Of a stretch of 64,000 nucleotides of DNA, positions 1 to 9,215 are shown in pieces. Made by a program: the position numbers and the translations under genes. The number at the start of each line of letters is the position of its first letter. The first letter of the stretch is position 1. The stretch is taken from assembly GCF_988243305.1 (NCBI RefSeq), contig NZ_OZ547136.1. The stretch is one strand, 5' to 3'. Below the pieces are notes generated by a model that made no database searches, had not been told where the DNA came from, and saw only the letters and a list, made by a program, of their open reading frames with translations.

Positions 1-188
1 ATTACGGTAAGGACCTGTGGAGTACTTATCAGACCATCCAGGAGAATATGCTGAAAGGCGGGATTTCCGGTCGCAGTGCAAAAGGAAAACGTATCCACAC
101 CCGTGCCATTCACAGCATCGACACCGATATTAAGCTCAACCGCGCATTGTGGGTAATGGCAGAAACGCTGCTGGAGAGCCTGCGCTGA
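1..188 (+). CDS. C-terminal fragment of an island protein (possibly DUF932 family); 5' end lies outside the window
   Basis: Open frame from window edge to TGA at 186-188; stop overlaps the ATG of the next ORF; position upstream of antirestriction gene as in CP4-type islands. Family assignment is from memory, not verified. Confidence 0.45.
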   Translation, partial: YGKDLWSTYQTIQENMLKGGISGRSAKGKRIHTRAIHSIDTDIKLNRALWVMAETLLESLR

Positions 189-433
189 TGCAGCATGTCC
201 CTGAAGGCGTGATTCAGGCACCAGAATCACCCGACGCCCCGGAGGCGCTGCCGGGGTGTCGTTCCATTTCTGATGATGACCTGTGCGCCTGGTGTACCCG
301 TCTGCTTTACCGTCCCGGAGAAATCAGTCTGTGCAGACTGAGTACAGGCAATGGCATCTGGCCATCCGTCTGTGACCGGAACGGTTACGCGTACGGCTGT
401 CCGGAATTTCAGCCGAATATCATTCATCCCTGA
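188..433 (+). CDS. Small cysteine-rich hypothetical protein (81 aa), possibly DUF905/YkfF-like
   Basis: ATG at 188 overlaps upstream stop (TGATG), suggesting translational coupling; 7 Cys in 81 aa; sits between DUF932-like and antirestriction genes. Confidence 0.45.
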   Translation: MQHVPEGVIQAPESPDAPEALPGCRSISDDDLCAWCTRLLYRPGEISLCRLSTGNGIWPSVCDRNGYAYGCPEFQPNIIHP

Positions 434-1554: not shown

Positions 1555-1776
1555 ATGAAAATCATCACCCGTGGTGAAGCCATGCGTATTCACCAACAGC
1601 ATCCTGCATCCCGTCTTTTTCCGTTCTGTACCGGCAAATACCGCTGGCACGGCAGCACTGAAACGTATACCGGTCGTGAAGTGCAGGATATTCCCGGTGT
1701 GCTGGCCGTGTTTGCTGAACGCCGTAAGGACAGTTTTGGCCCGTATGTCCGGCTGATGAGCGTCACTCTGAACTGA
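1555..1776 (+). CDS. DUF987 protein (YeeT/YkfH/YpjJ-like)
   Basis: 73-aa translation MKIITRGEAMRIHQQHP...YVRLMSVTLN is near-identical to K-12 YeeT as I recall it. Confidence 0.85.
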   Translation: MKIITRGEAMRIHQQHPASRLFPFCTGKYRWHGSTETYTGREVQDIPGVLAVFAERRKDSFGPYVRLMSVTLN

Positions 1777-1794
1777 GTCAGTAAGGGCATTCTG

Positions 1795-2439
1795 ATGAGC
1801 AGAATTATCACCACCACCGTGTATACACTGCATGAGCTATCCTCCACCGCACAGGAAAAAGCCCGCGACTGGTACCGTCAGCATCATGCTGACAGCAACT
1901 GGTATGAAAACGTGTATGAGGACTTCAGGGAGGTCTGTGGCATTTTCGGAATTGACCTCCGCCAGCGCGTTTTCCGGCTCAGCAACGGCAGGTTTATGGA
2001 AGAGCCGTGCATCTGGTTCAGCGGATTCTGCAGTCAGGGGGACGGAGCCTGTTTTGAAGGGCGCTGGCACTGGCAGCCAGCGACACCCCGGAAAATCAGG
2101 GAATATGCCCCTCAGGACCGTGAGCTTCATCGTATCGCGGATGCCCTGCAGGCGGTACAGAAGCGTAACTTCTGGCAGTTACAGGCTGAAATCAGTCACC
2201 GGGGACGTTACTGCCATCCGTACAGCATGGATATCACCGTCACCCGGAACAGTCCGACTGGTCAGGCACTGACAGCCGATGCGGAAGCCGCTGTCAGCGA
2301 AGCCCTGCGCGACCTGGCCTTCTGGCTGTACCGCCAGCTGGAAAACGAGTACGACTGGCTGACCTCAGACGCCGCTGTAGATGAGGCCATTCACATCAAT
2401 GCATATACCTTCACCGAAGCCGGTCTCCACGCCGGCTGA
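1795..2439 (+). CDS. Hypothetical protein (214 aa), unknown function, inserted between DUF987 gene and cbeA
   Basis: Uninterrupted 645-nt ORF; ATG preceded by AAGGG; Trp/Cys-rich; no family recognised. The K-12 yeeT-cbeA type modules have no gene here. Confidence 0.55.
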   Translation: MSRIITTTVYTLHELSSTAQEKARDWYRQHHADSNWYENVYEDFREVCGIFGIDLRQRVFRLSNGRFMEEPCIWFSGFCSQGDGACFEGRWHWQPATPRKIREYAPQDRELHRIADALQAVQKRNFWQLQAEISHRGRYCHPYSMDITVTRNSPTGQALTADAEAAVSEALRDLAFWLYRQLENEYDWLTSDAAVDEAIHINAYTFTEAGLHAG

Positions 2440-2488
2440 CCTGTCATCGTTAAACTATCATTCACCAATTTTTTGTGAGGATTTGATC

Positions 2489-2866
2489 GTGTCAGACACA
2501 CTCCCCGGGACAACACTTCCCGACGACAATCACGACCGCCCCTGGTGGGGGCTGCCCTGCACCGTGACGCCCTGTTTCGGGGCACGTCTGGTGCAGGAGG
2601 GTAACCGGTTGCATTACCTTGCAGACCGCACCGGTATCAGAGGCCGGTTCAGCAATGCGGATGCATACCATCTGGACCAGGCTTTTCCACTGCTGATGAA
2701 ACAACTGGAACTCATGCTCACCAGCGGTGAACTGAATCCCCGCCATCAGCATACCGTCACGCTGTATGCGAAAGGGCTGACCTGCGAAGCTGATACCCTT
2801 GGCAGTTGTGGTTACGTTTATCTGGCTGTTTATCCGACACCGGCAGCACCCGCAATCACCGTATAA
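2489..2866 (+). CDS. cbeA: Type IV TA antitoxin CbeA (YeeU) homolog
   Basis: GTG start with GTGAGGA RBS; translation VSDTLPGTTLPDDNHDRPWWGLPCTVTPCFGARLVQEGNRLHYLADR... matches K-12 CbeA. Confidence 0.9.
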   Translation: MSDTLPGTTLPDDNHDRPWWGLPCTVTPCFGARLVQEGNRLHYLADRTGIRGRFSNADAYHLDQAFPLLMKQLELMLTSGELNPRHQHTVTLYAKGLTCEADTLGSCGYVYLAVYPTPAAPAITV

Positions 2867-2912
2867 CCCCGGATATCTCCCCTTTATCACCACCTGTTAC
2901 AGAGAACTTAAG

Positions 2913-3287
2913 ATGAATACATTACCCGACACTCACGTACGGGAGGCATCGGGCTGCCCGTCTCCCGTCACCATCTGGCAGACACTGCTCACCCGACTGC
3001 TGGACCAGCACTACGGCCTCACGCTGAATGACACACCGTTCGCTGATGAACGTGTGATTGAGCAGCATATTGAGGCAGGTATTTCACTGTGTGATGCGGT
3101 GAACTTTCTCGTGGAAAAATACGCGCTGGTGCGTACCGACCAGCCGGGATTCAGCGCCTGTACCCGCTCTCAGTTAATAAACAGCATCGATATCCTCCGG
3201 GCTCGCAGGGCGACCGGCCTGATGACCCGCGACAATTACAGAACGGTAAATAACATAACCCTGGGTAAGCATCCGGAGGCGAAATGA
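2913..3287 (+). CDS. cbtA: Type IV TA toxin CbtA (YeeV) homolog, cytoskeleton-targeting
   Basis: 124-aa translation; C-terminal ~100 aa (LLDQHYGLTLNDTPFADERVIEQHIEAGISLCDAVNFLVEKYALVR...) matches K-12 CbtA; N-terminus divergent. Confidence 0.9.
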   Translation: MNTLPDTHVREASGCPSPVTIWQTLLTRLLDQHYGLTLNDTPFADERVIEQHIEAGISLCDAVNFLVEKYALVRTDQPGFSACTRSQLINSIDILRARRATGLMTRDNYRTVNNITLGKHPEAK

Positions 3288-3775
3288 TGAAACTGGCCCT
3301 GACGCTGGAAGCCGACAGCGTTAACGTACAGGCACTGAACATGGGGCGCATTGTCGTTGACGTCGATGGTATTGAGCTTGCTGAACTGATTAACGTGGTC
3401 TGCGATAACGGTCACTCCCTTCGTGTTGTTGATGAATCTGACCGAGCCTCAACAGACTGCACGCCACCATTTGCTGCCCTGACCGGCATACGCTGCAGTA
3501 CCGCGCATATCACGGCAAAAGACAACGCCTGGCTGTACTCGCTGTCGCATCAGACGAATGACACCGGCGAATCAGAATGGATTCATTTTACAGGCAGCGG
3601 ATATCTGTTACGTACCGATGCGTGGTCATACCCGGTTCTGCGGCTTAAACGCCTGGGCCTGTCAAAAACGTTCCGCCGCCTGGTTGTCACACTCATCCGA
3701 CGTTATGGCGTCAGTCTCATTCATCTGGATGCCAGCGCTGAATGCCTGCCGGGTTTACCCACTTTCGACTGGTAA
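3284..3775 (+). CDS. DUF5983 protein (YeeW-like), overlaps cbtA stop
   Basis: ATG at 3284 overlaps cbtA stop (ATGATGA); 163-aa ORF in the conserved position after cbtA. Confidence 0.75.
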   Translation: MMKLALTLEADSVNVQALNMGRIVVDVDGIELAELINVVCDNGHSLRVVDESDRASTDCTPPFAALTGIRCSTAHITAKDNAWLYSLSHQTNDTGESEWIHFTGSGYLLRTDAWSYPVLRLKRLGLSKTFRRLVVTLIRRYGVSLIHLDASAECLPGLPTFDW

Positions 3776-3777
3776 CC

Positions 3778-3984
3778 ATGAACAACATGAAATCATTAAC
3801 CACGGAAACCGCACTGGATATTCTGATTGCGTGGCTGCAGGACAATATCGACTGCGAATCGGGAATTATCTTTGACAACGATGAGGATAAAACAGATTCG
3901 GCAGCACTGTTGCCCTGTATCGAACAGGCCAGGGAGGGTATCCGTACCCTGTGCCAACTGCAGCTTCTGCACCAGAACCGATGA
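3778..3984 (+). CDS. Small acidic hypothetical protein (68 aa), possibly DUF957-like
   Basis: ATG 2 nt after the previous stop; acidic DNDEDK stretch; family assignment from memory only. Confidence 0.5.
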   Translation: MNNMKSLTTETALDILIAWLQDNIDCESGIIFDNDEDKTDSAALLPCIEQAREGIRTLCQLQLLHQNR

Positions 3985-4073
3985 GTCTTACTCATTCACT
4001 CACCAGACTTCATTCCAATGACGTCAGCCTGAACAGGGCTGGCGTTTTCGTTTATAAACCAAAAGGAAAAACG

Positions 4074-4919
4074 ATGATGTCAGATATCACAATCTCCCGC
4101 CTGGAAGTGGTCAACGGACATACGGACATTATCTGCTCCACCTCAGTCAGCCACATTCTGGCTGTGCGAAAGACTACACTGCTGCAAATCGACACACTTA
4201 TCCGGCAACTGACTGAAATATCAGCAATGACAGAAAGTATTGGCGGTAAAACCGCACTGGACTGGGCCATGAAACAGGATTTTCGCTGCGGCTGCTGGCT
4301 CATGGATAAACCTGATACAGCAATGAAAGCTATCACCCGCAATCTCGATCGCGAAATCTGGCGTGACCTGATGCAATGCTCCGGGATGCTTTCCTTAATG
4401 GATGCACAGGCCCGTGATACATGGTACCGATCACTGGAGTACGATAATTTTCCGGAAATCAGTGAAGAGAATATTCTGAGTACGTTTGAGCAGCTACACC
4501 AGAATAAGGATGAAGTGTTTGAGCGAGGAGTGATCAACCTCTTCAGAGGGTTGAGCTGGAATTACAAAACCAATTGCCCCTGTAAATTTGGCAATAAAAT
4601 TATCGTCAACAATCTGGTGAGGTGGGACCGGTGGGGATTGCATCTTATCACCGGGCAACAGGCAGATAGACTTGCCGACCTGGAAAGAATGCTGCATCTG
4701 TTCAGCGGCAAACCGATCCCCGACAACAGGGAAAACATAACTATTCATCTGGACGAACATATCCGGTCTCTTCAGGGAAAAGAATGCTATGAAGATGAGA
4801 TGTTCATTATTAAATACTTTAAGAAGGGCTCTGCGCACATCACGTTCAGGAAGCCAGAACTGGTTGACAGACTGAATGATATTATCGCAAAACACTATCC
4901 TGATATGCTGGCAGTATAG
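4074..4919 (+). CDS. Hypothetical protein (281 aa), island cargo next to serX; possibly DUF4942-like
   Basis: AAGGAAAA RBS before ATG 4074; long ORF with lower GC than core; no catalytic motif recognised. Confidence 0.6.
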   Translation: MMSDITISRLEVVNGHTDIICSTSVSHILAVRKTTLLQIDTLIRQLTEISAMTESIGGKTALDWAMKQDFRCGCWLMDKPDTAMKAITRNLDREIWRDLMQCSGMLSLMDAQARDTWYRSLEYDNFPEISEENILSTFEQLHQNKDEVFERGVINLFRGLSWNYKTNCPCKFGNKIIVNNLVRWDRWGLHLITGQQADRLADLERMLHLFSGKPIPDNRENITIHLDEHIRSLQGKECYEDEMFIIKYFKKGSAHITFRKPELVDRLNDIIAKHYPDMLAV

Positions 4920-5068: not shown

Positions 5069-5156
5069 TGGCGGTGAGGGGGGGATTCGAACCCCCGATA
5101 CGTTGCCGTATACACACTTTCCAGGCGTGCTCCTTCAGCCACTCGGACACCTCACC
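5069..5156 (-). tRNA. serX: tRNA-Ser (GGA), serX
   Basis: Reverse complement reads GGTGAGGTGTCCGAGTGGCTGAAGGAGCACGCCTGGAAAGTGTGTATACGGCAACGTATCGGGGGTTCGAATCCCCCCCTCACCGCCA: 88 nt, long variable arm, CCA end. Confidence 0.95.
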
Positions 5157-8355: not shown

Positions 8356-9189
8356 TCAGGATTCCGGTGGAACCGACATATGGCGGTATTTCACTAGAAT
8401 GTCATTCTGCCGTTCTGCTTTATTTTGCAAATCCCAAAGACCGCGGTCGATACCATCATTAATCAGGAAAATGACGCCTGTTTCGATAGCCGACATTAGG
8501 CACAGCATAACGGGTTCGTTCGAGGTGTAACCTACTTCCCCTTCCAGCAAGCGCTGGTAGTCAATAAAGCGGAAAACCCCGGCCTGAACTTCATAGGAAA
8601 GTATCGTCTTACTAGTGTTCACCGAGGAGAGGATCTCGCCGGTACTCACATTGACGACGCGCAGGTTCACGGCAATCTGATCAAGCTGGTATTGCGTGTC
8701 GGCACCGATCCCAAAATATCTTGCCCCAACCCCGCCCGATTTGACGTTGCTTTCATAACCGATAATTGAACCTTCAACCATGATATTTGCCGCCGTTAAA
8801 GACTGCAGCGGGATTCGGTTATTAATGGCAACCGTACCGTTTTCTTGTGCCGCACGAATAATCTTGCGCTCGTTAAGCAGGTTTTGTAAGCCCTGGCGCT
8901 CCAGCGGTATAAACCAGCGAGAATCTTTCAATGCCGTGACCAGCATTGCCGTGGCGCTTTGCGGAACAGCAGTGGAGAAGTTACTTGCCGGGTAGGGTTT
9001 AAATTGCCCGGTTTCGTCCTGAATGTTGTATACCGAAACAAAGATCTTACCCGTCGGCGCTGGCAGATGGGTCAAATCTTTGTAGCTCTGAGCACGAGGC
9101 ATTAATGTCGGTCTGGCGGCTTCTTTAGGCGGGGCGGTTAAGCATCCGCTCAGTAACATGACGGCAACCAAAAGAAATAAGCGCTGCAT
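8356..9189 (-). CDS. csgG: Curli secretion channel lipoprotein CsgG
   Basis: 277 aa; lipobox LLSGC. Confidence 0.95.
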   Translation of the reverse strand: MQRLFLLVAVMLLSGCLTAPPKEAARPTLMPRAQSYKDLTHLPAPTGKIFVSVYNIQDETGQFKPYPASNFSTAVPQSATAMLVTALKDSRWFIPLERQGLQNLLNERKIIRAAQENGTVAINNRIPLQSLTAANIMVEGSIIGYESNVKSGGVGARYFGIGADTQYQLDQIAVNLRVVNVSTGEILSSVNTSKTILSYEVQAGVFRFIDYQRLLEGEVGYTSNEPVMLCLMSAIETGVIFLINDGIDRGLWDLQNKAERQNDILVKYRHMSVPPES

Positions 9190-9215
9190 GATTATTTTCC
9201 TTACGAAGCTGGGGC

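Follow-up and report, generated by a model that had tools for sequence, protein, structure and literature searches.

A family of small acidic four-cysteine proteins, most likely zinc-binding, encoded in enterobacterial CP4-type islands and on conjugative plasmids

The window, i.e. the whole 64,000-nucleotide stretch of contig NZ_OZ547136.1 (assembly GCF_988243305.1) that was analysed, begins within a DUF932 gene, truncated at the window start, of which the 3' end is present (positions 1-188, + strand; Pfam match to the C-terminal part of DUF932); in Escherichia coli UTI89 the complete DUF932 coding sequence, with the same end point, specifies 273 residues. Its TGA stop codon (186-188) and the ATG (188-190) of the next reading frame have one A in common, giving, as read from the sequence, a TGATG stop-start overlap on the + strand (186-190; context GCGCTGATGCAG) of the termination-reinitiation type. 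The frame so started runs to a TGA at position 433 (188-433, + strand) and encodes an acidic Cys4 protein of 81 residues, for which PGAP gives the same coordinates (WP_001164966.1, 'hypothetical protein'). A preliminary description of this DNA had proposed both the 81-residue ORF and the overlap of its start codon with the upstream stop, and these two proposals are borne out. Co-oriented with the ORF, all on the + strand, are an antirestriction gene of the ArdB/KlcA type (PF03230, 527-1000), which is its most constant neighbour, a RadC-like JAB gene (1016-1492), both identified with Pfam, and the remainder of a conserved array comprising DUF987, a gene for a 214-residue protein of unknown function, cbeA, cbtA, DUF5983, DUF957 and DUF4942 (together 1555-4919). 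The end of the island is marked by a tRNA-Ser gene on the - strand (5069-5156).

The first 1,100 bases of the window are 100% identical to the corresponding DNA of UTI89 and of other B2-type strains. In UTI89 this region forms the right-hand end of an island, beside tRNA-Ser and ghrA, with the order GTPase, Ag43, DUF932, 81-residue ORF, antirestriction (PF03230), RadC-like JAB, DUF987, 214-residue unknown, cbeA, cbtA, DUF5983, DUF957, DUF4942 and tRNA-Ser; the UTI89 PGAP annotation has an identical coding sequence, under the same accession, directly 3' of the DUF932 gene. Neither a relaxase gene nor an oriT was seen in the UTI89 island in the 12 kb upstream or in the interval up to tRNA-Ser. 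The 214-residue ORF (1795-2439, between DUF987 and cbeA) lacks a Pfam match and matches only PHROG 5162, of unknown function (E=7e-37); it is missing from several orthologous islands. In the CP4-57 element of E. coli K-12 (L021, 17920-18869) the two genes next downstream in the window have homologues now called lfgA (yfjX, antirestriction-like) and lfgB (yfjY, a RadC-like 'prophage protease'). LfgB reportedly cleaves the antitoxin MqsA (PMC10846083), which bears on the activity of such an array in its resident host.

The 81 codons constitute a genuine gene for a protein, one on which purifying selection acts. A sequence search returned 184 close homologues, an exhaustive search of representatives (50% clustering, E<=0.001) 185 clusters, and a profile search 585 proteins, with orthologues of 52-65% identity in Citrobacter, Mixta, Yersinia, Klebsiella, Enterobacter, Salmonella, Serratia, Rahnella and other genera. 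Pairwise Nei-Gojobori comparison of the window gene with its Citrobacter, Mixta, Yersinia and Klebsiella orthologues gave dN/dS values of 0.11-0.32, at dS values ranging from ~1 to saturation. The preliminary description had named loss of the frame in related islands as the observation that would speak against the gene; across such islands the frame is kept, and within the Enterobacterales the stop-start overlap and the order DUF932-ORF-antirestriction-RadC are maintained with it. At every orthologous locus fetched the gene is flanked by DUF932 and the antirestriction gene, and it starts at the coordinate where DUF932 ends. A TGATG or TAATG junction is present at loci L012, L014, L016 and L017 and recurs in most of the 19 enterobacterial genome loci; its occurrence in Citrobacter, Mixta, Yersinia and Klebsiella supports the translational coupling to the upstream gene that had been suggested from the window alone. 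A spurious ORF was dropped as an explanation given the conservation of the frame across genera and the eight positions that are invariant in 75 homologues, and a non-coding RNA was likewise rejected, there being no Rfam family overlapping the ORF.

Exceptions to the usual arrangement are found in Rahnella laticis (L031, 7001-7234 and 8642-8794), where the RadC gene is followed by the Cys4 domain again, as a diverged second copy, and in Yersinia frederiksenii (L032, 6561-8300), where the ORF lies between two RadC paralogues, with DUF932 4 kb upstream; the gene thus moves within the module.

The protein consists of a variable, Pro-rich N-terminal segment (residues 1-24, positions 188-259), in which close homologues agree at M1 and P5 only, and a conserved core domain (residues 25-72, positions 260-403); most homologue matches span residues ~22-77. 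In an alignment of 75 diverse members D29, D31, C33, C36, Y41, S47, C49 and C71 are invariant, and S26, I27, S28, D30, P43, G44, W58, P59 and Y67 nearly so, giving the family motif S-I-S-D-D-D-L-C-x2-C-x4-Y-x-P-G-x2-S-x-C ... W-P ... D-x-D-G-Y-x3-C, which in the core domain of the window protein is preceded by an Arg residue. The near-invariant acidic motif S26-I-S-D-D-D31 (263-280) immediately precedes L32 and the CxxC pair (284-295), the Cys residues of which, C33 (284-286) and C36 (293-295), are putative metal ligands 1 and 2; C49 (332-334) and C71 (398-400) are putative ligands 3 and 4. None of the 75 sequences lacks any of the four, i.e. the domain has the four conserved candidate ligands of the Cys4 zinc-binding class. 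Leu occupies position 39 in the window protein and in 48 members, and Cys in the other 27. The protein is soluble-looking, with a pI of 4.6, a net charge of -5, no Lys residues and an N terminus without a signal-like segment; the medians for the 75 members are a pI of 4.5 and a net charge of -6. A GC-rich hairpin (window 232-261; 11 pairs, 9 of them G-C), followed by TTCCATTTCT and with a terminator-like score, lies in the variable N-terminal coding part and may be a chance occurrence. Secretion as a Cys-rich peptide, or a role as a RiPP precursor, was considered and rejected, the N terminus being acidic and lacking a signal-like segment, with no modification enzymes encoded nearby.

An AlphaFold2 model calculated from the family alignment is compact and confident (mean pLDDT 86, pTM 0.72), and in it the CxxC pair lies on a short helix (residues 32-35) and short strands span residues 39-41, 46-49 and 68-70. 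That the window ORF encodes a real member of a Cys4 metal-binding family can be regarded as very probable. The pattern of conservation suggests that the four invariant Cys residues most likely bind one structural metal ion, Zn2+ being the best candidate, which would hold together a mini-domain too small to have a hydrophobic core. The preliminary description was therefore right as to the kind of domain, in that four Cys residues are invariant in the 75 homologues and the predicted fold is compact, but not as to its details: it had counted seven Cys residues where there are six (24, 33, 36, 49, 62 and 71), two of which are unconserved (position 24, in the variable segment, is mainly Ser or Ala, and position 62 mainly Phe, in the 75 members), and of the two paired spacings that it listed CAWC (C33-x2-C36) is a true CxxC, whereas CPEF contains a single Cys.

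The 81-residue protein has no match in Pfam (E<=1), NCBIfam, PHROGs or PADLOC, and is thus not among the known defence proteins in the last of these. When all 75 members were compared with Pfam at E<=10, sub-threshold zinc-finger and Fe-S noise was all that was returned, the commonest match being RecR_ZnF (10 of 75 members, best E 0.15). A single-sequence search of the PDB gave two chance-level matches (E 0.43 and 1.3) and a profile search none; no fold match was found in the PDB, nor an above-threshold match to known zinc-finger or zinc-ribbon families in Pfam or the PDB. Nothing emerged from the literature when it was searched by protein accession or with the sequence of a plasmid repeat described below. 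The homologue is absent from the CP4-6 and CP4-57 islands of K-12, and therefore there is no y-gene literature to draw on. The family is an undescribed one, without a Pfam, NCBIfam or PHROG model or a structural relative.

Database names for family members are 'hypothetical protein' throughout, with 'antirestriction protein' for a few. The latter label looks like a carry-over from the neighbouring gene or from deletion fusions, rather than a sign of homology. Two E. coli protein clusters (P0027 and P0140) stem from deletions that fuse residues 1 to 52-58 of the ORF, without loss of frame, to a C-terminal portion of the antirestriction protein, and the existence of these fusions is probably the reason for the label in some records.

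The Cys4 domain occurs alone (proteins of 55-90 residues), in duplicate (cluster P0128), or at the N or C terminus of proteins of 110-340 residues. The extensions fall into ~28 mutually unrelated groups, and no credible Pfam domain was detected in any of them. Because the domain is acidic and is fused N- or C-terminally to so many unrelated partners, it would seem better suited to binding proteins than to binding DNA, i.e. charge and modularity together favour a protein-binding adaptor over a DNA-binding finger.

Among 5,426 complete E. coli genomes, 2,592 carry DNA near-identical to the ORF, at 4,260 places (median two copies, maximum seven). Many of these E. coli copies carry a TA duplication (TA to TATA) at a site corresponding to window positions 343-344 (+ strand; located by alignment with strain ET479), at which the window copy is intact. 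The resulting +2 frameshift takes effect after residue 52, so that the WP...DGY...C71 half is lost and aberrant products of 90-130 residues are specified; the clusters P0024, P0031, P0042 and P0050 are of this kind. The ET479 copy (L047, 1201-1448) is identical to the window ORF apart from the TA duplication, and 248-nucleotide alleles with the duplication were unannotated by PGAP in the four such records sampled. The C4 motif is broken in 4 of the 19 enterobacterial genome loci. Since many E. coli copies are frameshifted and the motif is broken at these four loci, the gene is dispensable in resident islands. The window allele itself has all eight invariant residues and matches the largest intact clusters, P0001 (717 member sequences) and P0003 (234).

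Almost all carriers of the family are mobile elements, namely CP4-type integrative islands of Enterobacterales, where the gene always belongs to the array DUF932 / ORF / antirestriction / RadC-JAB / ... / DUF4942, and conjugative plasmids. Matches by tblastn are found in 1,170 plasmid records, most of which come from Klebsiella, Enterobacter and Escherichia and 1,128 of which are predicted to be conjugative; a phage origin was rejected, there being no tblastn match in 50,697 phage records. On IncL plasmids of the pOXA-48 type the homologue lies between genes for an Hha-family protein and DUF1380, which are followed by antirestriction (klcA), ssb, mobA and relaxase genes, all co-oriented, with JAB and DUF4942 genes further upstream of the homologue. 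By gene order, the pOXA-48 homologue is within ~5 kb upstream of oriT/mobA, with nine genes between it and mobA/relaxase; klcA has been placed near oriT on pOXA-48 (PMC12365149). The layout is the same, and again co-oriented, on pKP58-3 (MPF_I; typed as IncFII by MOB-suite), with seven genes between the homologue and mobA/relaxase. On Pectobacterium and Comamonas plasmids the gene lies just past an inverted umuDC operon, and on the Pectobacterium plasmid antirestriction, DUF1380 and methyltransferase genes are downstream of it. An inverted umuDC operon is precisely the boundary that Samuel et al. (2024, PMC11541004) give for anti-defence islands in plasmid leading regions, the genes of which are so oriented that the transferred strand serves as their template, and leading-region genes of IncI and F plasmids are induced early (PMC12672017). 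Distant metagenomic homologues adjoin an Antirestrict gene or MPF_I transfer genes (DotD, T4SS_TraI, PilS), and betaproteobacterial copies are found amid plasmid-type genes, including those for a ParM-like actin, VRR-NUC and DUF1173.

If the leading region is taken to extend from oriT over the first ~30 ORFs on that side, it is the plasmid homologues only that lie within one; as applied to the window island the term would hold by analogy with the plasmids. The orientation expected of early genes is seen on pOXA-48 and pKP58-3, where the homologue is co-oriented with klcA, ssb and mobA, the identity of the transferred strand being assigned by analogy with IncI and F plasmids. Of the features of the plasmid leading regions, the window copy has only the antirestriction, JAB and DUF4942 gene set, and because this set is found in both, the chromosomal array looks like the same module as that on the plasmids, fixed in an integrative island.

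The pOXA-48 homologue is ~50-56% identical to the window protein, in the core only, and differs from it in having a GTG start and in not being coupled to DUF932. On the pOXA-48-type record NZ_CP068848.1 (L002) the conserved frame is a GTG ORF at 8941-9177 (78 residues, MTTLHIREIP...SISDDDLCASC...); the RefSeq/PGAP annotation has instead an out-of-frame ATG ORF, without the motif, at 8975-9190 (WP_004206914.1). On pKP58-3 the right frame is annotated (WP_086556679.1). The wrong frame is thus given in RefSeq on at least one pOXA-48-type record, and gene-level screens of pOXA-48 that use the ATG model may mis-target the Cys4 gene. A 25-nucleotide element, GGYAGCGCCCCGACTGGCGCAGGAG, is present in this region (L002, 848-11157, upstream of the pOXA-48 oriT) in 10 copies on one strand, against an expectation of 0. 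It comprises a small GCGCC/GGCGC hairpin and an AGGAG Shine-Dalgarno sequence, ends ~5-10 nucleotides 5' of gene starts, and precedes the Cys4 gene and nine other co-oriented pOXA-48 genes, including those for DUF1380, DUF4942 and klcA. The element looks like a translation or regulatory signal shared by the gene set; it is absent from the window island.

Other explanations have to be considered. It may be that the four invariant Cys residues hold an Fe-S cluster, in a small factor sensing redox state or oxygen. The Cys at position 39 in 27 of the 75 members creates a ferredoxin-like C-x2-C-x2-C...C arrangement, and a few members have weak, sub-threshold matches to Fer4, Fer4_6 and FhuF_C. However, the window protein and the majority of members have Leu at this position, leaving four Cys residues as the only invariant ones, the RecR_ZnF matches, equally sub-threshold, outnumber the Fe-S ones, and the gene context is devoid of redox-related genes; we consider an Fe-S protein unlikely. 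A DNA-binding zinc-finger regulator controlling the genes of the island or leading region is also conceivable, since a small Cys4 protein heads a co-oriented array and plasmid leading regions carry small regulators, such as the Hha-family protein encoded beside the pOXA-48 homologue. Such a role is hard to reconcile with the strongly acidic character of the window protein, which has no lysine, and of the family as a whole, with the conservation of DDD as the surface motif, and with the lack of a match to any HTH or known DNA-binding zinc finger, and appears highly improbable.

The retention of the stop-start overlap in the window, at the four loci named above and at most enterobacterial genome loci might be taken to mean that the protein serves the DUF932 protein alone, as its dedicated small subunit or partner, and has no role of its own. 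Yet on pOXA-48 and pKP58-3 there is no annotated DUF932 gene in the 16-18 kb of DNA around the homologue, and on the Pectobacterium plasmid none is adjacent; the L004 copy overlaps a different gene, of 171 residues, the Y. frederiksenii copy has RadC upstream, and among the many unrelated domains to which the Cys4 domain is fused none is DUF932. An exclusive partnership with DUF932 is thus improbable. Finally, the window copy could be a functionless relic, decaying in a cryptic island after its expression or use was lost, as might be supposed from the commonness of the TA-duplication allele in E. coli, the deletion fusions P0027 and P0140, the absence of the gene from CP4-6 and CP4-57 of K-12 and the non-essentiality of the pOXA-48 locus in Tn-seq. 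Against this, the window allele is intact at all eight invariant positions and matches P0001 and P0003, near-identical DNA is present in close to half of the complete E. coli genomes, and selection has been purifying across genera, so that a relic is very unlikely indeed. All four of these explanations are less well supported than a Cys4 module with a role in establishment or anti-defence.

The best overall reading, which we regard as probable on balance, is that the protein is a Cys4, probably zinc-binding, protein-binding module belonging to an establishment/anti-defence gene set. As no relative of known function was found by fold or by sequence, the functional part of this reading is drawn entirely from genomic context, and the assignment to establishment or anti-defence, taken by itself, is tentative. 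The ORF would be part of the leading-region gene set of conjugative elements, the members of which would be expressed early after entry into a new cell, and a host factor would be the target that its product binds or neutralises; termination-reinitiation would, in the chromosomal island, allow the DUF932 protein and the Cys4 protein to be made in a fixed ratio. A more far-reaching proposal, possible but rather doubtful, is that the protein is the founding member of an undescribed anti-defence/establishment family, in which a portable SISDDD-Cys4 zinc module, alone or fused to effectors, is expressed by conjugative plasmids (including pOXA-48) and integrative islands on cell entry and neutralises a conserved host immunity or DNA-processing factor.

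About half of complete E. coli genomes contain a member of the family, as do more than 1,100 sequenced plasmids, nearly all of them conjugative; among these are the IncL pOXA-48 carbapenemase plasmids, on which the gene has known early-entry genes (klcA, ssb) for neighbours. Should members of the family prove to act in establishment or anti-defence, plasmid host range would have a new determinant, and one that is easily tested; should they not, a clean new Cys4 domain, worthy of a family entry, would still have been defined.

Comparison with known systems begins with DUF905/UPF0401 (PF06006), to which the preliminary description had tentatively assigned the ORF on the strength of a positional resemblance. 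Like the window ORF, the DUF905 genes of the K-12 islands CP4-6 and CP4-57 (encoding YkfF and YpjI, respectively) are ~80-residue ORFs immediately 5' of the antirestriction gene in CP4-type islands. There is, however, no sequence relationship: the window protein matches no Pfam family at E<=1, none of the 75 members matches DUF905, and the K-12 islands that have DUF905 genes (ykfF, ypjI) lack a homologue of the window ORF. Nor are the two alternative occupants of one slot, since both coexist in the same island at L017, at L018 and in ET479, where the real DUF905 gene is separate and upstream of DUF932; the assignment does not hold. ArdB/KlcA (PF03230) is the constant genomic partner of the ORF and its name is sometimes given to the small protein, but the latter has no PF03230 match, is of a different size and has the Cys4 motif, whereas the neighbour at 527-1000 matches PF03230 at E=3e-37. 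With Cys4 zinc fingers and ribbons, such as RecR_ZnF (PF02132), the domain shares a CxxC pair with two further Cys residues within ~40 residues, a small size and little secondary structure.

By gene order (rmoA/Hha, orf27.1, orf28, orf29/DUF1380, orf30, klcA), the locus of the homologue on pOXA-48 is that of 'orf28'. In the Tn-seq study of that plasmid, orf28, described as having no conserved domain, was scored as non-essential both in plasmid maintenance and in transfer between laboratory E. coli strains (log2FC 1.26, not significant; PMC12365149), a neutrality that is compatible with an accessory role limited to particular recipients and is not positive evidence for one. Although the window copy differs from the leading-region anti-defence genes (PMC11541004) in that the chromosomal island around it shows no transfer genes, the family resembles them in that the pOXA-48-type homologue is located near oriT/mobA, co-oriented with klcA and ssb, and in that inverted umuDC and a methyltransferase gene are found near homologues on other plasmids.
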